Shown here: piece after piece, positions 201 to 19,793 of the stretch
How positions within the stretch are numbered: the stretch's first letter is position 1
Layout: every line of letters starts with the position of its first letter
DNA from: a virus
Reading direction: 5' to 3' (one strand)
Length of the DNA: 64,000 nucleotides
IMG/VR virus record: IMGVR_UViG_3300013286_000501
Span: 1 to 64,000 of that record
Notes under the pieces: generated by a model
What the model saw: only the letters and a program-made list of their open reading frames with translations
The model's database searches: none
Told to the model about the DNA's origin: nothing
Position numbers and translations under genes: made by a program

Positions 201-277
201 TGGTGGATTGCCAGGGAATCGAACCCTGAGTCTTACTCCTTAAAAGGGAGATGTTTTAACCGTTAAACTAGCAATCC
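201..277 (-). tRNA. tRNA-Lys(TTT)
   Basis: Cloverleaf GGATTGC/GCAATCC, loop CTTTTAA, TTCGA, encoded CCA. Confidence 0.95.
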
Positions 278-282
278 CGTAT

Positions 283-357
283 TGGTCCCTCCGGGCAGAC
301 TTGAACTGCCAACCAGCGGATTAAGAGTCCGTTGCGCTACCATTGCGCCACAAAGGG
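283..357 (-). tRNA. tRNA-Lys(CTT)
   Basis: Cloverleaf, loop CTCTTAA, encoded CCA. Confidence 0.93.
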
Positions 358-418
358 TTAGTTGTATTAAATTGATTTAATGTGCCAACCCTAGACCAAT
401 ACGGGATCTAGAGCGACA

Positions 419-439
419 CTAACGTTTAGCACGTTTCAT
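419..439 (-). CDS. putative 6-aa leader peptide MKRAKR
   Basis: GAGG SD 7 nt before ATG AAA CGT GCT AAA CGT TAG; own promoter upstream; strong hairpin immediately downstream. Confidence 0.5.
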   Translation of the reverse strand: MKRAKR

Positions 440-468
440 ATCGTTTCCTCTTTTGTGTTTAAGTTTAA

Positions 469-497
469 AGTATACAACCTTTTGCAGTAGTTGTCAA
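469..497 (-). promoter_or_regulatory. sigma70-type promoter
   Basis: TTGACA-17nt-TATACT. Confidence 0.8.
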
Positions 498-506
498 CTG
501 TTTTTT

Positions 507-582
507 TGGTACCAAGAGTCGGAATCGAACCGACCACACCCTATTCTTCAGACAGGTGCTCTACCAACTGAGCTATCTTGGC
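507..582 (-). tRNA. tRNA-Phe(GAA)
   Basis: Cloverleaf, loop CTGAAGA (G37), encoded CCA. Confidence 0.95.
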
Positions 583-588
583 ATTGAT

Positions 589-662
589 TGGGGTGAAAGC
601 GGGAATCGAACCCTGGTCAACTGATTCACAGTCAGCTATGTTACCACTACACTACTAACACC
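589..662 (-). tRNA. tRNA-His(GTG)
   Basis: G-1:C73, loop CTGTGAA, CCA; two mismatches in acceptor stem. Confidence 0.88.
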
Positions 663-674
663 ATAAATAAGTGC

Positions 675-1415
675 ATGAATAATATTCCTTTCCTACAGAA
701 AGTTGATAATCTAGGACAATGGGACATTCCTAAAGTTATCAATGATATCCGAAATTTATTTCAGTTATCTGGTTGTAACTGGGATACATGGCAAAGAAAT
801 AACAAATTAACACATGGTCAGTTTGTAGATTCAAAGTTACACGATAACCAAGGTTACTTAAACCTAACATACAATCCTGGATTGTCAAACTCTATTGAAG
901 ATCGTCTATGGTCATTTTCCGGAAGAAAGTTCCAAGAACGAAATGATGTAGCAGACGGTGATCTCCATACTCTGCAACCTGAACTAGCAGGAACATATAT
1001 TGAAGAGCTGTTTAAAAAACTAACACAAGAGCTAGGTCCTGTTCGGCTTCGTTTACATAACAAAGCGGATCAAAAAGGATTATATTGGCATCGAGATGAA
1101 TGGGACGATGTCTCACAATATCGATATCATTTAACCTTATGGACTAATCCTGGACATTTTATAGTCTGGACTAAAGATGAATTTACTTGGCAATATGGAT
1201 TTGATCCCAGAGAAACCAAGAAAGACATAAAAATCAATGCAGAATATATGCCAGTGAATGGCAATATATTTCAAATGGCTACCGGAGTATATCTCCATGG
1301 AGTATCTAGTATTGCAATAGGATGGAACGCTTCTCATCAAATGCAGAGTAGATGTCATCTTGTAGCAATACCTATGGTACCAAATAATAGGCATTTTGAA
1401 TATACTTACAAATAA
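675..1415 (+). CDS. putative Fe(II)/2OG-dependent oxygenase (aspartyl-hydroxylase-like cupin)
   Basis: WHRD (HxD) .. RYHL .. LHG .. RCHLV motif order; TAAATA 5 nt upstream. Confidence 0.55.
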   Translation: MNNIPFLQKVDNLGQWDIPKVINDIRNLFQLSGCNWDTWQRNNKLTHGQFVDSKLHDNQGYLNLTYNPGLSNSIEDRLWSFSGRKFQERNDVADGDLHTLQPELAGTYIEELFKKLTQELGPVRLRLHNKADQKGLYWHRDEWDDVSQYRYHLTLWTNPGHFIVWTKDEFTWQYGFDPRETKKDIKINAEYMPVNGNIFQMATGVYLHGVSSIAIGWNASHQMQSRCHLVAIPMVPNNRHFEYTYK

Positions 1416-1416
1416 G

Positions 1417-1494
1417 TGGCAGGGGTAATCGGATTCGAACCGATGATACTAATTTCAAAGACTAGTGCTTTAGGCCAAACTAAGCTATACCCCA
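1417..1494 (-). tRNA. tRNA-Gln(TTG)
   Basis: Cloverleaf, loop CTTTGAA, G73-CCA. Confidence 0.93.
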
Positions 1495-1504
1495 ACAAAT
1501 AAAA

Positions 1505-1561
1505 CAGGATGCTTATTTTTGAATTAAAAGTTCAATTGTATAAGTTGCTGAACGCATCCTA
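1505..1561 (-). ncRNA. mini-RNA motif copy 1 (AGGATGC-GTTCAGCAA..GCATCCT) carrying a tRNA-Lys-like anticodon stem-loop
   Basis: Terminal stem AGGATGC/GCATCCT; internal TTGAA-CTTTTAA-TTCAA; homologous copy at 1824-1885. Confidence 0.6.
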
Positions 1562-1566
1562 AAAAC

Positions 1567-1649
1567 TGGTGCTGCCTATAGGAATTGAACCTATGTTCTC
1601 TTTCGAGCCGCCTTATCAAGACGGTGCCTAACCATTCGGCCAAAGCAGC
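1567..1649 (-). tRNA. tRNA-Ile(GAT) with atypical long variable arm
   Basis: GCTGCTT/AGGCAGC, loop TTGATAA, variable arm CTC-GAAA-GAG, CCA. Confidence 0.88.
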
Positions 1650-1656
1650 ATTATAT

Positions 1657-1731
1657 TGGTACCGCCAAAAGGAATCAAACCTCTATTCCCACGTTCGTAG
1701 CGTAGTGTATTATTCATTATACTATGGCGAT
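1657..1731 (-). tRNA. tRNA-Arg(ACG), divergent D/T loops
   Basis: Loop CTACGAA; D-loop lacks GG; T-loop TTTGATT; CCA. Confidence 0.8.
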
Positions 1732-1736
1732 AAAAT

Positions 1737-1814
1737 TGGAAGTGCGGGCCAGATTTGAACTGGCGGTTTTACTGGTTTGCAATCAGTTGCCTTGGACCAC
1801 TCGGCCACCGCACT
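1737..1814 (-). tRNA. tRNA-Cys(GCA)
   Basis: Loop TTGCAAA, U73-CCA. Confidence 0.93.
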
Positions 1815-1823
1815 ATAATAAAA

Positions 1824-1885
1824 CAGGATCAACTTTTTAGTTTCTGGATAAAAGAAAGTTGTTTAAGTTTGCTGAACTGATCCTA
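1824..1885 (-). ncRNA. mini-RNA motif copy 2 (AGGATCA-GTTCAGCAA..TGATCCT)
   Basis: Same terminal stem with compensatory changes, same GTTCAGCAA core, internal hairpin TTTCT-TTTATCC-AGAAA. Confidence 0.6.
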
Positions 1886-1889
1886 AAAC

Positions 1890-1965
1890 TGGTCTCTCCT
1901 GTGGGACTCGAACCCACGAAATCCTCGCCCCAAACGAGGTGGCATAGCCGCTAACCGAAAGAGAG
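1890..1965 (-). tRNA. tRNA-Pro(TGG)
   Basis: C1, loop TTTGGGG, A73-CCA. Confidence 0.93.
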
Positions 1966-1972
1966 ATAAAAT

Positions 1973-2047
1973 TGGCATCCCCTGTTCGATTTGAACGAAC
2001 CCCGGTGATTTTGGAGATCACTGTGCTGCCGCTGACACTAAGGAGAT
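1973..2047 (-). tRNA. tRNA-Trp(CCA)
   Basis: Loop CTCCAAA, G73-CCA. Confidence 0.93.
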
Positions 2048-2053
2048 ATAAAT

Positions 2054-2143
2054 TGGTGGAAACGGTGAGATTCGAACTCACGGACCCCTTTCGGAGTCGA
2101 CTCCTTAGCAAGGAGCTGCCTTCGGCCACTCGGCCACGTTTCC
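2054..2143 (-). tRNA. tRNA-Ser(GCT)
   Basis: Loop TTGCTAA, long variable arm, CCA (A73). Confidence 0.93.
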
Positions 2144-2149
2144 TAAAAC

Positions 2150-2261
2150 TGTTACGACTGGTAGGTCTTGAACCTACAAAGGCTATGACTATGTCTTCGC
2201 CCCGTCCCCTGTCTATGCTATGAGCATAGCGGGAGGTCTTCCATATTCCACTCACAGTCGC
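2150..2261 (-). ncRNA. oversized tRNA-like RNA (about 110 nt)
   Basis: Acceptor-like GCGACTG/CAGTCGT, T-arm GTAGG-TTCAAGA-CCTAC, extended anticodon arm tipped by CTATG-CTCATAG-CATAG; ends AACA, not ACCA. Confidence 0.7.
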
Positions 2262-2268
2262 ATATATA

Positions 2269-2296
2269 ATTATACACGAGTTAAGTAGAATGTCAA
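2269..2296 (-). promoter_or_regulatory. sigma70-type promoter internal to tRNA array
   Basis: TTGACA-16nt-TATAAT. Confidence 0.75.
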
Positions 2297-2302
2297 GTTA
2301 TT

Positions 2303-2397
2303 TGGTGGAAAGCGGAGGAGTCGAACCCCACCCTGTTCTTCACAAGGACCCAGTTTTCAAGACTGGTCGGGGAACCAACTCCCCTGCATCACTTTCC
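2303..2397 (-). tRNA. tRNA-Ser(TGA) with 8/4, Sec-like cloverleaf
   Basis: 8-bp acceptor GGAAAGTG/CGCTTTCC, 4-bp T stem, 6-bp D stem with 4-nt loop, loop CTTGAAA, long variable arm, CCA. Confidence 0.85.
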
Positions 2398-2403
2398 ATT
2401 ATT

Positions 2404-2478
2404 TGGCGACTCGACGGGGAATCGAACTCCGATAATCGGATAGACAATCCGAAGTAATGACCTTTATACGATCGAGCC
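2404..2478 (-). tRNA. tRNA-Asp(GTC)
   Basis: Loop TTGTCTA (U37), G73-CCA. Confidence 0.92.
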
Positions 2479-2484
2479 TAAAAT

Positions 2485-2560
2485 TGGCGCCGTCGACGGG
2501 AATCGAACCCGCCTAAATCTGATAGACAATCAGGTGCCCTACCCAGAGGACTACAACGGC
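2485..2560 (-). tRNA. tRNA-Asp(GTC)
   Basis: Loop TTGTCTA (U37), G73-CCA. Confidence 0.92.
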
Positions 2561-2564
2561 AAAT

Positions 2565-2640
2565 TGGTATCGCGGACGGGAATCGAACCCGCCTAGCCAC
2601 CTTGAAAGGGTAGTGACCTAGCCCAGAAGTCAACCGCGAT
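2565..2640 (-). tRNA. tRNA-Glu(TTC)
   Basis: Loop CTTTCAA, CCA. Confidence 0.93.
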
Positions 2641-10325: not shown

Positions 10326-10400
10326 TGGTCCGCCCACCAAGAATTGAACTTGGAATTAAGACTTAGAAGGTCCTTGTTATATCCATTTAACTATGGGCAG
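10326..10400 (-). tRNA. tRNA-Arg(TCT)
   Basis: Cloverleaf, loop CTTCTAA, CCA; TTGACA-16-TATAAT promoter at 10409-10436. Confidence 0.93.
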
Positions 10401-10773: not shown

Positions 10774-11135
10774 TGGACAGTATTGCAGATCTAATAAACA
10801 GATATGGTTTTCCAATTGTGGCGGCGGCTGGGATGGGCTACGGAGTATTCTACGTATGGACCTGGGTGACCACAGAAATTAAACCCGTTATAGGACAAGC
10901 TAATGGAACACTTATTGCTCTTATTGATCGTATTCGTATGCTTGATAATGACCTTATACGACTTAACCAAAAAGTAGAAACTGTTATGGAGCTGCGTGGC
11001 AAGACTATCGAACGTGAACGTATTGAGGCTGAAAAAGATATCAATACTACTAAAAAGAAAGATGATACCGATATTCCAATCGGCAAGCGTAAAGCGTCCG
11101 CTAAAGAAATTAAAGAAACAGCAGGCGACGACTAA
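10773..11135 (+). CDS. small membrane protein, YvrJ-like paralog
   Basis: YGFPIVAA TM helix plus coiled coil; TAATG coupling. Confidence 0.55.
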   Translation: MDSIADLINRYGFPIVAAAGMGYGVFYVWTWVTTEIKPVIGQANGTLIALIDRIRMLDNDLIRLNQKVETVMELRGKTIERERIEAEKDINTTKKKDDTDIPIGKRKASAKEIKETAGDD

Positions 11136-11806
11136 TGAAAAAAACTATTGCCCTGTTCTTACACCAACCAATGTGTAGCATACAGTCGGGAAATGGGATC
11201 ATTAACGCATTACAATCCCATTACAATTTTAAAATTTTTACCAAACACGAGTTAGAAGACAGCTTCTTTGATGATGTTGATATGCTAGCCTTTCCCGGGG
11301 GCTTTGGCAACTCTGATAGCTATGACTATCTAATGAAGATCAACAGTAAGCCCATTACCAACTTTATAAACAGCGGTGGCTATTACCTTGGTATATGTAT
11401 GGGAGCTTACTGGGCAGGTAAAAATTACTTTAAACTGTTAGAAGGTGTTGATGCTGTCCAATACTACAAAAGACCCACAGCCTGCACTCGTCGTCCACAT
11501 ACTAAAAATATGCCAGTGACTTGGCAAGGAGTAGAGGATAAGATGTTCTTTAATGATGGATGTACATTTGTGGGCTCGGGCAAGTATGAAACCTATGCTA
11601 CATACTCAAATGGTGAGCCTATGGCTATCATTCAAAATAGATTAGGATTAATAGGTTGCCACCCAGAGAGTGAGAAGTTTTGGTATGATAGTTATCCGCA
11701 GCTTATCGGACAATATCACAATGGCGCTCACCATACCCTACTACTAGACTTTGTTAATACTTTATTTCGAAGTAGCTCTGAAGGTTCCGTCCCAGTCACT
11801 AGGTAA
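11135..11806 (+). CDS. class I glutamine amidotransferase-like (BPL_N-type) protein
   Basis: FPGG, GGYYLGICMGAY, HPE triad motifs. Confidence 0.75.
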   Translation: MKKTIALFLHQPMCSIQSGNGIINALQSHYNFKIFTKHELEDSFFDDVDMLAFPGGFGNSDSYDYLMKINSKPITNFINSGGYYLGICMGAYWAGKNYFKLLEGVDAVQYYKRPTACTRRPHTKNMPVTWQGVEDKMFFNDGCTFVGSGKYETYATYSNGEPMAIIQNRLGLIGCHPESEKFWYDSYPQLIGQYHNGAHHTLLLDFVNTLFRSSSEGSVPVTR

Positions 11807-13822
11807 GTCTTTGTTACGCATATCGGCAATGCGATCAATCCACAGTTCATAGTAGTGATCCATATTGCCATCAAAGCTACCTGTAAGTTCTTTACATAGC
11901 GTGATAGCTTTATCCCAATCCTGTTCGCGATAGTATTGTAACATAAGCTCATGTTGTTCTCTAGCACTGTTCCATGCTTCTGCTACAGTCTCATCTGGCA
12001 TGTAATTCACTGTAAAGATATTAACACCAACTGTCTTACCTTTAACTGCAATACAGTCCAGAGGTATTGTAAAGTATATATCGCTAACACGTTGCTCTGT
12101 GCTTTCACTAATAATGATCTTTTGTCCGTAATTCTTTGTTTGGCTTTCTAATCGTGCAGTTAAGCTGACACTGTCACCTAGTACGTCATAACCAAAGCGG
12201 TCCTTACTGCCAATATTACCAATTAGAGTTTGCCCAGTATTAATACCTAGTCCCATACCCACACGTGGTTTGCCTTCTTCTTCTAACTCAATGTTGAACA
12301 AGTCAACAGCATGAATCATTTCCAATCCAGTACGAACAGCAGCATGGGCATGATCAGGATCTTGTTCTTCTTGAATAGGAGCACCATGAACGTGCAATGA
12401 TGCATCACCAATGAACTTGATCAAACAACCGTTGTTGCGTAGAATAGGTTCAGAAATAGCAGTCATGTAACGATTCATTGTATTGGTAAATGCTACAACA
12501 TCCTCGCCGTAGGTCTCACCTAGGCCTGTGAAGTTACGCATGTCGCTCATTATAATAGTAAGCTCTTTCTTTTCACCGCCTAGTTTAATAAAGCTAGGAT
12601 CTTTCTGTAGACGTTCTACAATAACAGGATTGACATATGATCCAAACTGTTTTTTGATTGCAGACTTTTGTAAGTATTCGCTTACAAATTTGACACTATA
12701 TGCATGAATGTATACCAAACTAGTAGCAACAATAAACCAAGTGGCGTCCAATAAGATTCTGGAAGTTTCGTATAGGTATGATACAGCAAAGTGACTAGCA
12801 CCGAGAAAGATAATAATAGGAAGAAAAGCATAAGTCCACCTTGATAAAAATAATACCAACAGTCCTGCTACAAGAACGGCAAAGATCTCTGCATCATCGG
12901 CCCACTCCGGTCTCTTGATAGATGTTCCGCTCATTAACGTGCCCAACAAAGTAGCCTGCATATATTGGGGCCATACCTCGCCTCGAGCAGTAGCAACGGG
13001 ATTAACAAGCCCAGCAGCACTTAACCCAACAACAACAACTTCACCGTTAAAGGTTTGTGGTAGTTTAGCTAGACTGTATTCTTGCGGAGTCCTGCTCCAA
13101 TCAATCCATACACGGCTTAATGCATCTGTTTCAACTTTTCCAAATTTAGGAACACGTAGAGCTTCTACACCCATGTCTCCAATCTTAATTTGGAACTTGG
13201 GATCCTTGGCTGCAACACGCAATGTCTCCAATGCTAGGCTAGGATGAATGATGTTATCACTCATAATGACCAAAGGCATACGGCGAACAACACCATCAAC
13301 CTCTGGGAATGTATTAACAACTCCAACACCTGCGGCAGCTTGTTCAACTGCTGGCACGTTGGCAATGATACCAGGATACTCTACTATAGCACCACCCGGA
13401 TCTGCACCTACTACTTGGGCAACACTCTTGGAAGGTATGTTCTTATCCTTGGCTCCACCTAGTTCAGGCAGGACCACGGGCAACTGACCGAGTACCCTAG
13501 CCAGTTGGCCATCTTGACCAAATCGGTCTGGCTCTGGCATAAGAATATTAAACACGACAAGGCCAGCGCCACGGTCGTAAAGGTCTTTAATAATAGCCCC
13601 ATAGGTTGCCCTTGGGAACGGGAATTGTCCATATTTTTCTAACGCCTCTTCATCTATGTTAACTGTGTTTACGGGAATGATTTCTGCCGGCTGTGCGGTG
13701 ACTAACTGGTCAAAATAACGGAGTCTAACTGACTCCACAAAACTAGGATCGGCAAGTCTAATGCCTAACATTAAGGCCAGTGTCACTACAGCCAGCCACG
13801 GTGATAATAATATTTTCTTCAT
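11762..13822 (-). CDS. CHASE2-domain class III adenylate/guanylate cyclase
   Basis: N-terminal TM, CHASE2 (IDEEAL..GQFPFPR, DGVVRR.PL), 3 TM, cyclase SDMRNFT, KFIGDA, YDVLGD..ARLE. Confidence 0.92.
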   Translation of the reverse strand: MKKILLSPWLAVVTLALMLGIRLADPSFVESVRLRYFDQLVTAQPAEIIPVNTVNIDEEALEKYGQFPFPRATYGAIIKDLYDRGAGLVVFNILMPEPDRFGQDGQLARVLGQLPVVLPELGGAKDKNIPSKSVAQVVGADPGGAIVEYPGIIANVPAVEQAAAGVGVVNTFPEVDGVVRRMPLVIMSDNIIHPSLALETLRVAAKDPKFQIKIGDMGVEALRVPKFGKVETDALSRVWIDWSRTPQEYSLAKLPQTFNGEVVVVGLSAAGLVNPVATARGEVWPQYMQATLLGTLMSGTSIKRPEWADDAEIFAVLVAGLLVLFLSRWTYAFLPIIIFLGASHFAVSYLYETSRILLDATWFIVATSLVYIHAYSVKFVSEYLQKSAIKKQFGSYVNPVIVERLQKDPSFIKLGGEKKELTIIMSDMRNFTGLGETYGEDVVAFTNTMNRYMTAISEPILRNNGCLIKFIGDASLHVHGAPIQEEQDPDHAHAAVRTGLEMIHAVDLFNIELEEEGKPRVGMGLGINTGQTLIGNIGSKDRFGYDVLGDSVSLTARLESQTKNYGQKIIISESTEQRVSDIYFTIPLDCIAVKGKTVGVNIFTVNYMPDETVAEAWNSAREQHELMLQYYREQDWDKAITLCKELTGSFDGNMDHYYELWIDRIADMRNKDLPSDWDGTFRATSK

Positions 13823-13865
13823 TTCTTCTCCAGGGTGTATACACCTATTATCATTGTATTTAACA

Positions 13866-14366
13866 TTAACCCATAAAGCGGGTAAAGAATACCCAGGATA
13901 GTGCAACAACAGGAATTAGAACAGCAACACCGCCTACAAAGTATAGGAATACTTCCACAACTTTTGCTAGTTCTTCTCGCTTGATACGCTTCTGTCTTTC
14001 TATTTCAACAGCAGCAGCGGCACGCTCTTTGTAGATACGAATACGTTCTTTCATCATATCTTCCCAGACATCTCCATTACCGGAATAAATCAGTATATTT
14101 TTTAGTGCCCTTTCGTCTTCTCGAAGTTTCTTAGAAGCCATTGCTACCTGAAATGCTAGACCTCGAACATCTGAATCGGACCTGTTAGCACTTTCTATAC
14201 GCAATTTGGCATTTGCAGTATGTACCTCATCACTAGAACTAAAGAACTTACTGAAATCATTGTATAATTGCGAGATATCTTTACCTAGTGCTTGAGCTTT
14301 CTTAATGCCATCTACTGCGCTCCTGGCTGCTGCAAATGCTAAACTGATACTAACGGGATCAATCAT
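13866..14366 (-). CDS. hypothetical helical protein with C-terminal TM anchor
   Basis: ORF track; hydrophobic C-terminus. Confidence 0.6.
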   Translation of the reverse strand: MIDPVSISLAFAAARSAVDGIKKAQALGKDISQLYNDFSKFFSSSDEVHTANAKLRIESANRSDSDVRGLAFQVAMASKKLREDERALKNILIYSGNGDVWEDMMKERIRIYKERAAAAVEIERQKRIKREELAKVVEVFLYFVGGVAVLIPVVALSWVFFTRFMG

Positions 14367-14506
14367 TTTTTCTTGTCCTTATCCTCTTTGGGCTTGCTCC
14401 ACTCTAAGCATATGGACACACGGGTATAGTCTTTGCCTACCCAATACCACCGTAAGCATCGAGGCTCTGCTAACAAATAAATTGATAGCATTGCTGCGGA
14501 AAGCAT
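14363..14506 (-). CDS. small secreted-type protein (47 aa, two Cys)
   Basis: MLSAAMLSIYLLAEPRCLRWYWVGKDYTRVSICLEWSKPKEDKDKKK; coupled by TAATG upstream and ATGA downstream. Confidence 0.6.
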   Translation of the reverse strand: MLSAAMLSIYLLAEPRCLRWYWVGKDYTRVSICLEWSKPKEDKDKKK

Positions 14507-15927
14507 TATTTGTTCCTTATAACGGAAACACTACATCCAACTGGATTGGTGCAAATTTGTTGTAGGTTGTAGGCATCACCTGCGCCTGTTTGAATAACAC
14601 TCACTGTATTAGCTCCACCTGCATTTACAAGACTCAATACAGTCCCGTGATTGTTGCCAGTTTGTGATACGGTGGCCACATTGTTGTTTCCGTATAAGTT
14701 TGCTGCTGCAATGTTGCCATTACCAGTTTGCCCGAAAGATAAAGAATTATTATTTCCACTTATAGTACTGTATACTTGATTATTGTTACCAGTCTGGGTA
14801 GCTAATAATGAATTATAAGTTCCTGTAGAACTAATAATGGCGCTATTACTATTACCAACCTGTGAGTTGACTACTCCGTTAAAATTGCCCGATACTGCTA
14901 CAGCCGATAAGTTGTAGTTACTGGCATTGGCAGATTCTGTGGATGCCCCTGTAGTGTTGAATGTATAACCTTGTCCCAGTCTAACAATATTGTTAGACCC
15001 ACCCAGACTAACACTTTCATAGTTGCCACGCCCACTTTGATTGGTAGTTACTTTATTGCTAGCACCAGCATTTGTTTGTGTTATGTAAACACTGTTTTTA
15101 TTTGTGCTAGCATTGGGACTAACTGGAATAGTAGTAGGTCCAGTAACTGTGTAGTTCCAAGTAGTGTCGCTAGTAGTTGTAGGAGTACCTCTCGAAGTAG
15201 TCTTACTACCATCACTATATGTAGTAGTTGTTACAGGAGTAGTAGTTGTTGTAATTGTTGTGGGTGTGCTAGTTCCTACTACAGAATATGTGCCGCCGCT
15301 CCATTGATATGTGTTAGATGTAGTTTCTGTAGGACCTGTAGAACTACTTGACCCAACTTCGTTAGCTGTACTAGTTCCTGTTACAGTCGGCGACGCGGGT
15401 GCAGATGGTTGTGCTGTCTGTCCGGCGGCCAATGGGGTTGTACTACCATTGGCAGCGTATGCGTTAACCTGTGCTACGGTAGGGTTTAATGTTCCAGTCC
15501 AAGATACACCGCTAGTGTTGGAAAATCCTTGTGTCATACTAAACAACTGTCCAGTATTATTATCATTGCCCACAAAGAAGAAATAATCGTTGCCCATGTT
15601 AATAATATGGCCAGTACCCAATACTGCCTTCTGTGCTCCGTTGGCAGAGTATTGAATAGCATTGAATGGGTTAGTACTGTTACCTGTGGTTGCAAAGGCA
15701 ACGTAATCACCTGCAGCCCATGTTAATTTTCCACTAGTCCACGGAATCTTGTATACTGTTCCTGGATTCTTACTATAGATTTGACAAGTTGCTGTTTGTG
15801 TACAGGCACTGACATTCCATTGACTATCTGCTATTTGTGCTTGCCCAAATTTTAAATCCGACAAGCTGGTTGCCTGTGCAGTTAAACACATCATTAATGC
15901 AAAAATAAATGATAGAAATTTTTTCAT
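14506..15927 (-). CDS. secreted protein with globular N-domain, Thr-rich linker and C-terminal curlin-like repeats
   Basis: Signal peptide; repeats SQVGNSN, TQTGNNN, GQTGNGN, SQTGNNH. Confidence 0.75.
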   Translation of the reverse strand: MKKFLSFIFALMMCLTAQATSLSDLKFGQAQIADSQWNVSACTQTATCQIYSKNPGTVYKIPWTSGKLTWAAGDYVAFATTGNSTNPFNAIQYSANGAQKAVLGTGHIINMGNDYFFFVGNDNNTGQLFSMTQGFSNTSGVSWTGTLNPTVAQVNAYAANGSTTPLAAGQTAQPSAPASPTVTGTSTANEVGSSSSTGPTETTSNTYQWSGGTYSVVGTSTPTTITTTTTPVTTTTYSDGSKTTSRGTPTTTSDTTWNYTVTGPTTIPVSPNASTNKNSVYITQTNAGASNKVTTNQSGRGNYESVSLGGSNNIVRLGQGYTFNTTGASTESANASNYNLSAVAVSGNFNGVVNSQVGNSNSAIISSTGTYNSLLATQTGNNNQVYSTISGNNNSLSFGQTGNGNIAAANLYGNNNVATVSQTGNNHGTVLSLVNAGGANTVSVIQTGAGDAYNLQQICTNPVGCSVSVIRNK

Positions 15928-17063
15928 TATTTGTAGCTCTGGTTAATGATGATACTGCCTTGAGGCTTATTATAACCACCTGCAAAGTTATAGGCATCTG
16001 TTACACGATCCTGTGTTACTACGACTAATACTTTGTTGTCGTTAATTAAAGTTATGGCGGTAAAGTTATTACCGTTAGGACTCAAACTCATATATCCCCA
16101 TCCTAGTTGGTTTAAATTAGGGTTATCGTTTTTATACATTCCAACAACGTGTTCATTTTCATAAGGTTTATCCGAAACCTTAATGCCTTTGTTCTTGAGT
16201 TCATTTAACAGTGATAGGGCTCGATCTTCAGCAGCCTGTGCAGCCGCAGTCTTTTGTTGATTATCTTTTTGTTGATCAGCTGATGCTTGGGCTTCTGCTG
16301 CTGGAGGTTCTTTATTCTCTTTATCCCCACCATCCTTTTTAGAGTCGCCTGTCTTTTCAGCAGCTGATTTTGCAGCCTGCTGTATGGCAATACCGGACAT
16401 TGTCGATGGTGGTTTGATGATTAGATTATTGCCAATTGGTGTATTGCTTAAATTAACAACTACAGGAGGGCTTGGGGGAGTGCTTGCTGTCTCAACGATA
16501 GTAGCCTGGTATGGTTTGTCTAAACGGATTATAGTAGATCCACTATCTACATCAATTTTACCACTACCACATGTTAAGCCTTTTAGGTTAATGTTTTGGT
16601 CAACTTCACATGTTGGCATCAACATGATCATACTTTTGCCAGTTTCGTCAACAGCCATAACAAAGTCTGTACCACGTACAGCAATGGCCGCTGTAGGAGT
16701 ATTGATTTTTACACTGTTGGGATTGTTGTGTGCGATATTACCAGATACATAACGTACAGTTCCGGCAGCAGCCTTAAGACCTAGCTTGCCGCCTGCAGCA
16801 TTTTTAGGATCGTATACAAAGTCATCGATTATTAAAGTAGAGTTTTCTGTGACCTTAACGGTAGTATCGTCTTTGAATCGAATATTAACAACACCGTTTT
16901 TGGTTTCTACTTTATCATTGGTTTCGATAGGAGTACCGTTGGCTACTGCAATAGTTTCTTTGCCGCGTTTAATAACCGCTGTGCCTTTTAGTTCAACAAC
17001 TGAACCAATATCGGCAACAGCAGCCGTAGCAACTAACCATAACAGGATGGCCCATTTTTTCAC
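15927..17063 (-). CDS. FecR-domain periplasmic protein
   Basis: Signal peptide; F.DDT.V.V.ENS, INTPTAAIAVRGTDF. Confidence 0.85.
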   Translation of the reverse strand: MKKWAILLWLVATAAVADIGSVVELKGTAVIKRGKETIAVANGTPIETNDKVETKNGVVNIRFKDDTTVKVTENSTLIIDDFVYDPKNAAGGKLGLKAAAGTVRYVSGNIAHNNPNSVKINTPTAAIAVRGTDFVMAVDETGKSMIMLMPTCEVDQNINLKGLTCGSGKIDVDSGSTIIRLDKPYQATIVETASTPPSPPVVVNLSNTPIGNNLIIKPPSTMSGIAIQQAAKSAAEKTGDSKKDGGDKENKEPPAAEAQASADQQKDNQQKTAAAQAAEDRALSLLNELKNKGIKVSDKPYENEHVVGMYKNDNPNLNQLGWGYMSLSPNGNNFTAITLINDNKVLVVVTQDRVTDAYNFAGGYNKPQGSIIINQSYK

Positions 17064-17075
17064 AATAGCCCCTTA

Positions 17076-17930
17076 TTAACGGCTTTTCTGAATGATGTTA
17101 AAACTACCACCGGCGGCAGTTGCTTGGATATTAGCTACGTTAGAGAATGTACCAGTTTGGCTAACATTGAATGTTGTGCCGCCTGATCCATTCTGTGCCA
17201 ATACCAAACTGCTCATGCTTGCGCTAGTTTGTAATACATTTACCGTATTATTATCACTACCGGTTAAGTTGATCAACATCTGTTGACCAGCTGTGCTATC
17301 TTGTCGTAGGTTAAGTGTATTACCATTGCCAGTAACATAAACAGCAGCCTGTAGCTGTGATCCATTGCCAGTATAGTTTGCAGTGTTGCTATTACCGCTG
17401 AATCTTAAGTCTAACAGTGCATTAGTGCCAGCTTGTGCAGACCCAGTTGTGGTTACTGTTTGACCAGCACTTACATTAGCTGTGTTGCTATTGCCCGATT
17501 GTAACAAATAAACATTGGCTTGATCACCTTTAACTCGTAATGTGTTAATAAGGTTGTTGTTGCCAGTTTGGTTAAGTGTAATAATTTGACTATCACCTTC
17601 TAACTTCATACTGTTAATTGTGCCAGTTGCATCGCTACCAGCACGGTTGCTATTACCGTCTTGGTTGATACTAACTGTTGGCGCACTACCAGTCTGCTCT
17701 AGATAGATAATGTTAGTTGTAGCAGCATTGCGAGAAGCAGTTACGCCAGCCGCAAAACGTGTTGTCGATTGATCAGTAATAGCAGGTGCTGATGCCTGTG
17801 TAGGTGCTGTGGGTGCAGTTTGTGCATAAACAGATCCTACGAATATACCTGCTAGTAGTGTTGCTAGTAGTTTTTTAATCATAGTGTTTTCTCCGAGAGT
17901 TTTCATTTTTACTCCTGTTTTTTGGATCAT
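17076..17930 (-). CDS. curlin-like (CsgA/CsgB-type) repeat protein
   Basis: Signal peptide; NQDGNSN, NQTGNNN, LQSGNSN, SQTGTFSN repeats. Confidence 0.75.
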   Translation of the reverse strand: MIQKTGVKMKTLGENTMIKKLLATLLAGIFVGSVYAQTAPTAPTQASAPAITDQSTTRFAAGVTASRNAATTNIIYLEQTGSAPTVSINQDGNSNRAGSDATGTINSMKLEGDSQIITLNQTGNNNLINTLRVKGDQANVYLLQSGNSNTANVSAGQTVTTTGSAQAGTNALLDLRFSGNSNTANYTGNGSQLQAAVYVTGNGNTLNLRQDSTAGQQMLINLTGSDNNTVNVLQTSASMSSLVLAQNGSGGTTFNVSQTGTFSNVANIQATAAGGSFNIIQKSR

Positions 17931-18856
17931 CTGATCCCTGTACTTTCTTCTTTGTTTCCTCCAGCATCTTTTCTGATGCTGGGCTGCTGCGTTGCCTTGG
18001 TAGGTGTTTTGGTATCCCCTTCGGACGCGGTTTTACTTTGAACCAACTCATTAGACGCCTCCTTGTATTTCCATAATCCTAACTTCTCACCCTTCTTCAC
18101 CATTTCAACAACACCTTGTTCAATTGCCGAACGAAGTGCATAGTTTCCAGGTTCATTGAACGTCTGGCTTGAATCAAACTCAAACGACTTTGTTCCCTGA
18201 TCGTAAAATCTCATTGCAGTAGCACCATCTTGTGTACTCAATAAGTTCTTTTCAATAGTCACAGATGATAAAACTTCACCTGTTTGAACACTGATCAGTC
18301 TCAAGCTGATAACAACTTGATCTTGTGTATAGCTAGTATATGGACCGATACCTAATATAGCAAATCCAGTACCACCTGTTAGCACGTTACTATTGTAATC
18401 AATAACGCCACCTTCTAGGATAACACCTGCTAATGTTAGTGGCGGAAGCATTTTAGCTTCGGCGCCTTCATAAATTTCACGAGTTTGTTTGATCATCTGA
18501 CGCTCTTTTAAAAGATTGTCTAGATTGCTACGTTCTACAACTGTGAACCATTGACGGTTTCCAGCTTCCTGTAGACTCTTGATTAGATAACTTTCAGCAC
18601 CCTGTGTAACTGCTGTACTGAAGGAACTTAATGTTACACTTGGCTTACGTTGACCGGTAAGATCTTTGAAACTATAAACTGCCACCGCAATTTTTTGACC
18701 TGCAGGTGCTGGTAGTGTATTGATCTCTTTAACAATAGTTGTTGAAACTTTTGGCGCTTCAGTTAGACTAATGTGTTCGCCCCATGGACGAATTGAAGAA
18801 CAGCCTGTCATTGCGGCTAGTGCTAGGGCAATAGTTGTTAATTTTAGTAATTTCAT
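17927..18856 (-). CDS. csgG: curli secretion channel lipoprotein CsgG
   Basis: Lipobox MTGC; AVYSFKDLTGQRKP, FSTAVTQGA, WFTVVER..LDNLLKERQ. Confidence 0.92.
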   Translation of the reverse strand: MKLLKLTTIALALAAMTGCSSIRPWGEHISLTEAPKVSTTIVKEINTLPAPAGQKIAVAVYSFKDLTGQRKPSVTLSSFSTAVTQGAESYLIKSLQEAGNRQWFTVVERSNLDNLLKERQMIKQTREIYEGAEAKMLPPLTLAGVILEGGVIDYNSNVLTGGTGFAILGIGPYTSYTQDQVVISLRLISVQTGEVLSSVTIEKNLLSTQDGATAMRFYDQGTKSFEFDSSQTFNEPGNYALRSAIEQGVVEMVKKGEKLGLWKYKEASNELVQSKTASEGDTKTPTKATQQPSIRKDAGGNKEESTGIR

Positions 18857-18866
18857 CTATTGCTCC

Positions 18867-19349
18867 TTAAAAACTAAAACTTGAAATTGGCACAGTGATG
18901 GTCTGTGTAGGACTTTTATTTGCAACAAATGCACCGTTGACCGTTTTACCGTCGTATACAGTTAATGTAACTTGACCGTTTAATTTGGTCCATTGGATTT
19001 GTTGTGCGTCAGCAACCATAAAGTTGCCGGTACTACATGCACCTGTGGTACACTCTTTGAATAAGTTGTTAGTTAGTTGAGTTGCCAATTGGCTATAAAC
19101 TTGTCCAGTAAACAATGACATAAATTTCGCTAGTGGAGTATTTGCAGCAGCAGCACCGATAGCAGCGGCATCTGCAGCCTTTTTAGAATCAACAGCATTT
19201 TGTGCGCTGTTACGCATCTGTTCTACCGTAAGGACTTGACTAGCCCAACCTTGGCCACTAAATGTTGGATCTTTAAATTGTTGAACTAATTCTGCTTGTG
19301 CTGTAGCTACAATCACTATCAACCCAAGGGTTGCTAAAGTTTTTTTCAT
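18867..19349 (-). CDS. csgF: curli assembly protein CsgF-like
   Basis: Signal peptide then ELVQQFKDPTFSG (CsgF F.NP.FGG-like N-terminus); adjacent to csgG. Confidence 0.75.
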   Translation of the reverse strand: MKKTLATLGLIVIVATAQAELVQQFKDPTFSGQGWASQVLTVEQMRNSAQNAVDSKKAADAAAIGAAAANTPLAKFMSLFTGQVYSQLATQLTNNLFKECTTGACSTGNFMVADAQQIQWTKLNGQVTLTVYDGKTVNGAFVANKSPTQTITVPISSFSF

Positions 19350-19421: not shown

Positions 19422-19793
19422 TTAAGGAACTAACAAATACCATACCATCCACAGGTATGTTGCTTGGTGTGCTAATTGATCTAGACCAAATTGCGTCCAG
19501 AAGATAGGTTTTGTTTGATCTTTGCTTCCATATTTTACTTTAGTATAATCTACAAGGTAATGGATTGCACCCTCTGCTAATATCAAAAATACTACAAGAA
19601 ATGCATTAGTGGGTACAAAGAAGCTAAACAACAGCAAAGAAACGGCAGAGCAGATCATGTGCTCGGTAGTGTGGCTCATTCCAATTGGATCTAACCACAC
19701 TCCTTTTTTAATGGTCTGCATATAGGTCTGCAATACAAAGTCGGCATAGCAATGCTTAACCTGTAGCAGTAGGAGTAAGAGTAATATATCCAT
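19422..19793 (-). CDS. DUF3307-like membrane protein
   Basis: KH..ADF.LQ, IHYLVDY.K, GLDQLAH. Confidence 0.75.
   Translation of the reverse strand: MDILLLLLLLQVKHCYADFVLQTYMQTIKKGVWLDPIGMSHTTEHMICSAVSLLLFSFFVPTNAFLVVFLILAEGAIHYLVDYTKVKYGSKDQTKPIFWTQFGLDQLAHQATYLWMVWYLLVP

Follow-up and report, generated by a model that had tools for sequence, protein, structure and literature searches.

A curli secretion block with a FecR-fold protein and a CHASE2 adenylate cyclase in a probable jumbo T4-like phage: a candidate trans-envelope signalling system

Introduction

The window analysed here comprises positions 1–64,000 (64,000 nucleotides, nt) of the IMG/VR virus record IMGVR_UViG_3300013286_000501 (full record 80,059 bases). 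It carries one co-oriented minus-strand run of genes (19793–11762), hereafter the block, in which genes for curli (type VIII) secretion and for curlin-repeat proteins are interleaved with a gene for an exported FecR-fold protein and followed by one for a CHASE2 class III adenylate cyclase. The question raised by this locus is whether the curli half and the sensor half work together, i.e. whether a phage equips the infected cell with a surface structure and also with the means to read it; a first-pass annotation, made from the sequence alone, had proposed such a trans-envelope sensor. We give about even weight to the reading that the infected cell builds surface fibres whose state is reported to the cytoplasm through cyclic AMP (cAMP) formed by the FecR–CHASE2 pair. 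The comparison of phage loci, the bacterial relatives and the features of the single proteins are set out below, together with the alternatives on which each of them bears.

The block is already published at the gene level; the window contributes a new, intact member, with additions specific to its lineage, from a probable jumbo T4-like phage. A conserved viral type VIII secretion system (T8SS) region composed of CsgF, CsgG, CsgA/B, FecR, another CsgA/B and an adenylate cyclase was reported by Wittmers et al. 2022 (PMC9599517) for HTVC023P-type podophages and pelagimyophages, with an alphaproteobacterial origin, transfer of the whole block between phage families, transcripts in ocean metatranscriptomes, and a share of about 0.1% of assembled viral proteins. 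The first-pass statement that the full module had not been described in phage is thus wrong for the genes, including FecR and cyclase, and right for the function. Two pelagimyophage papers (PMC7029224, PMC9004378) speak of a 'curli operon' only and mention neither FecR nor cyclase, the CHASE2 domain and the bacterial FecR–CHASE2 pairing are not named in the pelagiphage T8SS papers, and no paper treating CsgG together with CHASE2 was found in the literature searched. The same genes in the same order are found in the GenBank entries of Pelagibacter phage HTVC008M (KC465899, 7562–13807) and Methylophilales phage Melnitz (MZ577097, 50731–56876), annotated as CsgF, CsgG, curlin-associated repeat, FecR domain, curlin-associated repeat and adenylate/guanylate cyclase; the window cyclase is 34–40% and its CsgG 43–46% identical to theirs. 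In contrast to the pelagiphage T8SS regions, the relatives of the window are complete T4-like genomes of 344–372 kb, not 140 kb pelagimyophages or podophages, and the window adds a DUF3307 gene upstream, two small genes before the cyclase gene, and its own type of Cur2 head.

Linkage of the curli and sensor halves in phages

At the nucleotide level, megablast with the whole region found no match among 50,697 phage records, so that protein-level searches were needed. A total of 80 viral loci retrieved via the cyclase and 80 via CsgG were surveyed, and bacterial genomes likewise; these are the best 80 matches per search and are mutually related, and they were annotated with profiles of the window proteins (surveyed loci carry L numbers). 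Overall, at least 584 viral CsgG loci and at least 424 viral cyclase loci were found.

Counted as conservation among these related loci, a FecR gene is present in all 64 of the 64 viral CsgG loci with at least 2.5 kb downstream, a full-length cyclase gene in 43 of the 45 with at least 9 kb downstream, and CsgG in 39/39 viral cyclase loci with at least 9 kb upstream. The core order in phages is CsgF-CsgG-Cur1-FecR-(Cur2)-cyclase, with the FecR gene nested between the two curlin genes and stops and starts overlapping. The spacing between FecR and cyclase varies between 15 and 5280 nt and includes unrelated inserts, and a few copies have an inverted cyclase gene that is still adjacent, with all parts kept. 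The linkage holds down to a CsgG identity of about 40% and across genome sizes of 140 to 372 kb. The nearest relatives of the window (L153, L155–L160; CsgG 68–85% and cyclase up to 78% identical) have the upstream DUF3307 gene in common with it. The first-pass annotation had called for a synteny survey and had named unlinked cyclase and FecR genes as the case that would speak against it; in phages, the linkage to csg genes proved near absolute.

These counts bear directly on the possibility that two independent cassettes, one for curli adhesion or shielding and one a cAMP host-takeover enzyme, are merely co-located in a variable island. Pelagimyophages carry the region in a hypervariable part of their genomes (PMC7029224), the varying FecR–cyclase distance and its inserts are in line with such an island, and some phages have no Cur2 or no cyclase (also PMC9599517). 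The two-way linkage over this range of CsgG identities and genome sizes, the inverted arrangements that retain both halves, and the transfer of the whole block between phage families (PMC9599517) argue against it, and we hold chance co-location to be very improbable.

Gene content of the block

The genes of the block, all on the minus strand and listed in the direction of transcription, with the upstream DUF3307 gene placed last, are as follows (lengths in amino acids, aa).

18867..19349, minus: CsgF-like curli assembly protein, 160 aa, signal peptide (PF10614, E 2.4e-12, 47.6 bits against a cut-off of 25.8; phrog_35372)
17927..18856, minus: CsgG outer-membrane secretion channel lipoprotein, 309 aa (PF03783, E 2.2e-51; lipobox LAAMTG|C)
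17076..17930, minus: Cur1 curlin-repeat fibre subunit, open reading frame (ORF) of 284 aa (repeats of type LxQxGxxNxAxV)
15927..17063, minus: exported FecR-fold protein, 378 aa (PF04773, E 2.3e-9; signal peptide)
14506..15927, minus: Cur2 curlin-repeat protein with N-terminal head, 473 aa (Curlin_rpt PF07012, 21.7 bits against a cut-off of 20.7)
14363..14506, minus: small ORF, 47 aa, hydrophobic N-terminus (tblastn 44–51% identity, same position in L155, L156, L160 and L217)
13866..14366, minus: small protein, 166 aa, C-terminal transmembrane helix (40–44% identity in L155, L156, L160 and L217; phrog_32327, E 7e-7)
11762..13822, minus: CHASE2 class III adenylate cyclase, 686 aa from ATG 13822 (PF05226, E 6.8e-37; PF00211, E 4.7e-19)
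19422..19793, minus, directly upstream of csgF: DUF3307 membrane protein, 123 aa (PF11750, E 2.2e-8; phrog_2470, 'membrane protein')

Every gene of the co-oriented run named in the first-pass annotation (csgF, csgG, a curlin-like gene, FecR, a curlin with an extra N-terminal domain, two small genes and the CHASE2 cyclase) was recovered at the stated coordinates, and the translational coupling claimed for the run is largely borne out by gaps and overlaps of -4 to 43 nt between successive genes (10, -4, 12, -1, -1, -4 and 43 nt from csgF through the cyclase gene). Scanning for sigma-70 promoters and terminators yielded 35 sites, where 26.5 were expected; inspection by eye revealed no T4-late motif that was clear.

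The start and stop of the 47-aa ORF overlap the adjoining genes, and the pair of small genes is kept in four related phage contigs (L155, L156, L160, L217); the 166-aa protein, for which no Pfam family and no histidine-kinase domain was found at E<=1, is missing from most other phage copies of the block. DUF3307 is located directly upstream of csgF in L153–L166 and L073, and also upstream of Slam-FecR-CHASE2 genes in Hyphococcus-type bacterial loci; it is an accessory member of the block in the clade of the window.

On the opposite strand, a gene for a 223-aa BPL_N/GATase-like protein (11135–11806, plus strand; PF09825, E 1.2e-10) is convergent with the cyclase gene and overlaps its 3' end by 45 nt.

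Bacterial relatives and origin

The closest bacterial CsgG proteins among the matches listed are alphaproteobacterial (Erythrobacter, Qipengyuania, Hyphomonas, Sphingopyxis, and others). In the surveyed loci, bacterial csgF-csgG operons contain one to five large curlin genes and never a FecR or cyclase gene, and the bacterial relatives of the cyclase have no CsgG, CsgF or curlins within 10 kb. The alphaproteobacterial operons have the csgF-csgG-curlin order in common with the phages (CsgG 40–49% identical), and differ by much larger curlins (400–900 aa) and by the lack of FecR and cyclase genes; they are without the CsgE/CsgC/CsgD set of the gammaproteobacterial type (PMC9599517) and, as cited in PMC7029224, were treated by Dueholm et al. 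2012.

A FecR gene is very often found immediately upstream of a CHASE2 gene in bacteria, e.g. in Parvularculaceae, cyanobacteria, Desulfocapsaceae, Sulfurimonas, and others. In Burkholderia and P. aeruginosa, a LysM-FecR protein is paired with a CHASE2 histidine kinase (PMC5192318), and the Burkholderia 'BiofilmReg' operon (response regulator, LysM-FecR, CHASE2 histidine kinase, DUF4136) resembles the phage pair in having an exported FecR protein upstream of CHASE2; in S. meliloti, the FecR-domain protein SMc02177 is paired with the CHASE2 cyclase CyaD1 (PMC5498481). The outputs of the bacterial pairs vary (histidine kinase, cyclase), with a response regulator or Crp alongside, and their FecR proteins fall into a short class of about 150 aa and a very long, adhesin-like one of 800–2300 aa, compared to 378 aa in the phage.

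In a FastTree phylogeny of 118 cyclases all viral sequences form one clade (support 100), the sister of which (support 100) comprises alphaproteobacterial sequences of Salaquimonas, Roseibium and Hyphococcus/Parvularculaceae. The Parvularculaceae loci also have the FecR–CHASE2 order and DUF3307 in common with the phages. In Hyphococcus luteus (L023:2676-15060), genes are predicted for a cyclic-nucleotide (cNMP)-binding oxidoreductase, DUF3307, a Slam-like barrel (an outer-membrane protein with TPR and DUF2860/DUF560, resembling the 'surface lipoprotein assembly modifier'), an 805-aa FecR-domain protein, a CHASE2 cyclase, Crp and a CNNM-CBS protein. As judged by its genes, this locus looks like a complete envelope-to-transcription cAMP pathway, for which no description was found in the literature searched.

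In such loci, the bacterial sensor cassette is already accompanied by a predicted outer-membrane protein translocon and cAMP receptor; in phages, CsgG/CsgF and curlins take the place of the translocon, and the cAMP receptor is missing. By gene content and relatedness, the block is a composite of two alphaproteobacterial-type cassettes, i.e. csgF-csgG-curlins, and FecR with the CHASE2 cyclase and DUF3307, which are inherited together in phages and as two separate cassettes in bacteria.

Eight contigs of metagenome-assembled genomes (L004, L005, L006, L008, L010, L012, L031, L298), binned as Bacteroidota, Legionellales, Pirellulales, Rhodobacterales, and others, carry the full phage block, and were considered and rejected as evidence that the fusion is of bacterial origin. 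Some of the block-bearing contigs of this kind carry pelagimyophage-type cobS/cobT or radical-SAM genes; because their taxonomic labels are incoherent and they are nested inside the viral cyclase clade, they are probably mis-binned phage contigs.

The closest analogue that has been tested is, by correspondence of parts, the NsrA-CyaD/K-Clr system of S. meliloti. According to PMC13001267 and PMC7529298, an extracellular protein elicits a rise in cAMP from its CHASE2 cyclases only if the outer-membrane barrel NsrA is present, and CyaD1, CyaD2 and CyaK act via the CRP-type regulator Clr (Garnerone et al. 2018, as cited there). The S. meliloti system has an outer-membrane part, a periplasmic FecR-domain protein (encoded in the regulon or neighbourhood), an inner-membrane CHASE2 cyclase and a cAMP output, as is predicted for the phage block. 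Unlike in the phages, the outer-membrane part in S. meliloti is a large beta-barrel and not a CsgG channel with fibres, a receptor (Clr) is encoded, and the FecR-domain protein is, according to PMC5498481, not required for signal perception.

The curli components

CsgG, CsgF and two curlin-repeat subunits with signal peptides are present, as expected for type VIII secretion, and are predicted to make up a complete minimal curli machine of channel, CsgF and two exported subunits. Residues 10–266 of CsgG match E. coli CsgG (3x2r/6l7a) at 2.3e-44; in the constriction loop, as aligned to the E. coli protein, the Phe is retained and Ser is found in place of both the Tyr and the Asn of E. coli. CsgF carries the motif QQFKDPTFSG at its mature N-terminus, after the signal peptide, which we take to resemble the pore-insertion motif of E. 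coli CsgF. Neither CsgF nor Cur1 gave anything significant against PDB sequences (phmmer finds no CsgF for CsgF).

The start of Cur1 is probably at 17882 (MIKKLL signal peptide). The window copy has no Pfam match at E 0.01; its profile matches curlin genes adjoining csgFG in about 75 alphaproteobacterial loci, as well as Cur2, and the homologue in Melnitz bears the annotation 'curlin associated repeat protein'. Cur2 is built of a head (residues ~20–165, about 145 aa), a Thr-rich linker, C-terminal curlin repeats and a terminal Cys-pair motif, and its homologues reach E 4.6e-9 for Curlin_rpt. In an alignment of 26 phage Cur2 homologues, the repeat region and the Cys-pair end are conserved and the heads are swapped: PA14 (L107), F5/8 type C/discoidin (L156, L224), and several types without assignment, including that of the window, for which there was no Pfam family and, in the ESM Atlas, no feature match and all structural rows at TM-score <0.5. 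Swapped PA14 and discoidin heads are what would be expected of a surface-exposed ligand-binding module.

Neither the contig nor any of four related phage genomes gave a match to CsgE (PF10627) or CsgC (PF10610), in agreement with the first-pass annotation; CsgD, which it had also listed as unrecognisable, and CsgH were not searched for. The missing CsgE, a periplasmic gate, and the Ser residues at the E. coli Tyr and Asn positions of the constriction loop would suit a repurposed CsgG/CsgF that makes no fibres, either as a pinholin- or secretin-like lysis-timing pore (Buchholz et al., PMC9004378) or for cofactor or iron import, in which case FecR would sense iron citrate (Zaragoza-Solas et al., PMC7029224; Wittmers et al., PMC9599517). 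Signal-peptide curlin-repeat genes are, however, conserved together with the pore (Cur2 is missing in at least 13 loci), so that the published claim that phages lack fibre genes fails for this block. The FecR protein is without the attributes of an iron-citrate regulator (see below), nothing in the block is related to iron, and a fibre-less pore is in our estimation most improbable.

The FecR-fold protein

The FecR protein consists of a signal peptide, a FecR-like beta domain (residues ~20–215), a low-complexity linker and a C-terminal beta domain (~300–378); the AlphaFold model has a pLDDT of 77. Residues 47–213 of the model resemble the C-terminal signalling domain of PupR (6ovk; Z 14.3, root-mean-square deviation 2.9, 135 residues aligned) and BDI_1681 (4m0n; Z 13.5), and residues 16–111 the 76-residue 'cell surface anchoring domain' of an adhesin (5ix9; Z 7.0, 25% identity). 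The fold is thus, in the model, that of the periplasmic signalling domain of anti-sigma regulators. Unlike in the FecR/PupR systems, the partner in the phage would be a CHASE2 cyclase, and the protein has no N-terminal cytoplasmic anti-sigma domain and no transmembrane helix, and a cleavable-type signal peptide directly precedes the beta domain. There was no match to the STN transducer domain (PF07660) and none above cut-off to extracytoplasmic-function sigma factors (PF04542) in the contig, three complete relatives and Melnitz. On these grounds, the protein does not qualify as an anti-sigma factor of the FecR type; nor does anything link it to iron.

The C-terminal domain (about 80 aa), modelled alone, has a pLDDT of 81 and gave no Foldseek match at E<=0.001 (best VIA Z 3.6, to immunoglobulin-like sandwiches). 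Its interpretation as a curlin-like repeat was tried and is unsupported (hhalign against Cur1, probability 6.6%).

The FecR profile matches the N-termini of proteins of 800–2300 aa, e.g. in L015 (Pfam: cadherin-like, Big_9). In Desulfocapsaceae it also matches short FecR-only proteins, which are encoded ahead of an OmpA-domain protein and CHASE2. In L055:8553-9948 and the Desulfocapsaceae loci L052, L053, L060–L063 and L067, a FecR-only protein of about 150 aa and then a protein of about 205 aa are encoded upstream of CHASE2 proteins of about 980 aa; the ~205-aa protein consists of an N-terminus that matches the FecR domain of the phage over its second half, and of a C-terminal OmpA peptidoglycan-binding domain. 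Judging from these matches, the N-terminal parts of both proteins seem to be fused in the phage protein.

Since the N-terminal domain resembles both an anti-sigma signalling domain and an adhesin retention domain, the protein might be modelled as a through-pore tether, with the N-domain held in the periplasm at the mouth of CsgG, the linker passing through the channel and the C-domain joined to the fibre on the outside, so that a pull or a ligand of Cur2 would switch cAMP formation by CHASE2. We offer this arrangement as a quite unlikely refinement.

The FecR protein might also serve periplasmic quality control, by binding unsecreted curlins in place of CsgE/CsgC/CsgH, with the cyclase reporting secretion stress or jamming. 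CsgE and CsgC were not found, FecR is translationally coupled to both curlins, and a similar hydrophobic-x-hydrophobic-x-Q pattern closes the sequences of the FecR protein, Cur1 and Cur2, all of which would fit. Alphaproteobacterial curli operons, though, also have no CsgE/CsgC and yet no FecR, FecR–CHASE2 pairs exist without curlins, and the low probability of the C-domain against the curlin profile is a further point to the contrary; such a role appears improbable.

The CHASE2 cyclase

The cyclase ORF extends to TTG 13909. The predicted topology is a first transmembrane helix, the periplasmic CHASE2 domain, three transmembrane helices, the cyclase domain and a conserved C-terminal tail of about 80 aa; hydrophobic segments flank CHASE2, which is the architecture of receptor-type CHASE2 cyclases. 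The best solved relative is Cya2 (2w01, E 9e-26). The metal Asp pair, the substrate Lys and the Arg (D427, D473, K469, R557) are invariant in 131 viral homologues, and the substrate pair K469/D546 predicts ATP as the substrate.

The position of the transition-state Asn is Ser553 in the window copy (codon at window 12163–12165). Two co-varying active-site types are represented among the 131 homologues (L073–L231), i.e. Asp with Ser (n=55, including the window and Melnitz) and Thr/Ser with Asn (n=75–76). Co-variation of Asp with Ser points to a functional variant rather than decay; the two types may differ in kinetics or in product, as far as the residues suggest.

A stand-alone paralogue (100–138 aa) of the last ~110 residues of the cyclase (profile 572–681) is encoded directly upstream of csgF in at least 15 phages, e.g. 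L076:19557-19907(-), L082:5550-5918, L098:17758-18111(-) and L151:6496-6912, plus 11 more loci. The window is without this gene and has DUF3307 in its place. No Pfam family and no histidine-kinase domain was found in the paralogues at E<=1, and the 'histidine kinase' that Wittmers et al. placed before csgF was not identifiable here.

Proposed working and output

During infection, the Sec system of the cell would export CsgG, CsgF, Cur1, Cur2 and the FecR protein, and CsgG/CsgF would form an outer-membrane channel through which Cur1 and Cur2 are secreted to polymerise into curli-like fibres, with Cur2 displaying a phage-specific ligand-binding head. The periplasmic FecR-fold protein would be the partner of the periplasmic CHASE2 domain and would report the state of channel or fibre (loaded, bound, blocked) to the cyclase, which would alter cAMP synthesis in the cytoplasm; cAMP would then act on a host receptor or on one of an unrecognised kind.

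Several points weigh against this reading. Fibre formation, the contact of FecR with CHASE2 and of the parts with each other, the direction of signalling, the cue and the output are what we infer from gene content, and the curlin-like 'sensor' could equally well be an adhesin or fibre. A cNMP-binding domain (PF00027) is absent in the contig, the three complete relatives of 344–372 kb, Melnitz and HTVC008M, so that the receptor would be a host protein or of an unrecognised kind; in Hyphococcus a cNMP receptor adjoins the cyclase. The Ser in place of the transition-state Asn (55/131) makes the activity or the product of the cyclase less than certain. No clumping was seen in Melnitz cultures (Buchholz et al., PMC9004378), and podophage copies are often without a cyclase (Wittmers et al., PMC9599517). 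Two of the viral loci surveyed have no cyclase within 6–9 kb, Cur2 is missing in at least 13 phage loci, in which FecR abuts the cyclase, and the surveyed loci are related top matches, for which reason their counts represent conservation and not independent events.

The missing receptor also bears on the alternative that the FecR–CHASE2 pair senses a condition unrelated to the fibres, and that its cAMP controls the expression of curli or other phage or host genes; the view of Wittmers et al. is of 'putatively regulatory FecR and AC' (PMC9599517). The expression of csgD and curli in E. coli receives input from cAMP-CRP (cited in PMC9599517), Crp adjoins the cyclase in the nearest bacterial locus, and FecR–CHASE2 pairs occur in bacteria without curli genes, which implies that the pair can sense by itself. 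On the other side, no Crp or other cNMP-binding protein was found in the contig and five related phage genomes, the tight spacing suggests co-transcription of curli and cyclase genes and is a poor fit with one controlling the other, and FecR is nested between the curlin genes and not placed beside the cyclase alone. We consider purely regulatory sensing unlikely, if worth serious attention.

Of the trans-envelope sensor in the first-pass annotation, the relay to the cyclase gains plausibility from the adjacency of FecR and CHASE2 in bacteria, from the loci with Slam-like barrel and Crp, and from the NsrA analogue, and it loses some by the missing phage receptor; such comparisons sharpen the fibre-reporting hypothesis, they do not prove it.

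Contig and phage context

CheckV completeness of the virus record is 22%, which for 80,059 bases gives a genome size of roughly 360 kb. The contig contains 16 tRNA genes, ribonucleotide reductase and other PHROG phage families. The tRNA genes comprise an array of 15 (window 201–2640) and a lone tRNA-Arg(tct) at 10326–10400, which is typical of large T4-like phages. Three complete genomes of 344–372 kb with terminal repeats carry both the block and a T4-type gp23 capsid gene; the block is hence not confined to pelagimyophages of about 140 kb, and the contig is probably a fragment of a jumbo (~360 kb) T4-like phage.

Implications

Few multi-gene auxiliary modules are as widespread in phages of oceans and fresh waters as this block, which would provide hosts without curli with an entirely new surface structure. 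To this the window adds that the block is also found in jumbo T4-like phages, and the survey that the bacterial relatives of the sensor half adjoin outer-membrane protein translocons. If the FecR–CHASE2 pair reads the state of the structure, it would be the first virus-encoded outside-in second-messenger sensor, and a partner and a kind of signal would be assigned to CHASE2, a common bacterial sensor domain with unknown ligands. Should the tether arrangement apply, the host would gain from the phage a sensor of touch or contact that is based on an amyloid fibre. A fibre-reporting block would also have a bearing on aggregation, superinfection and carbon export in SAR11- and OM43-type plankton.

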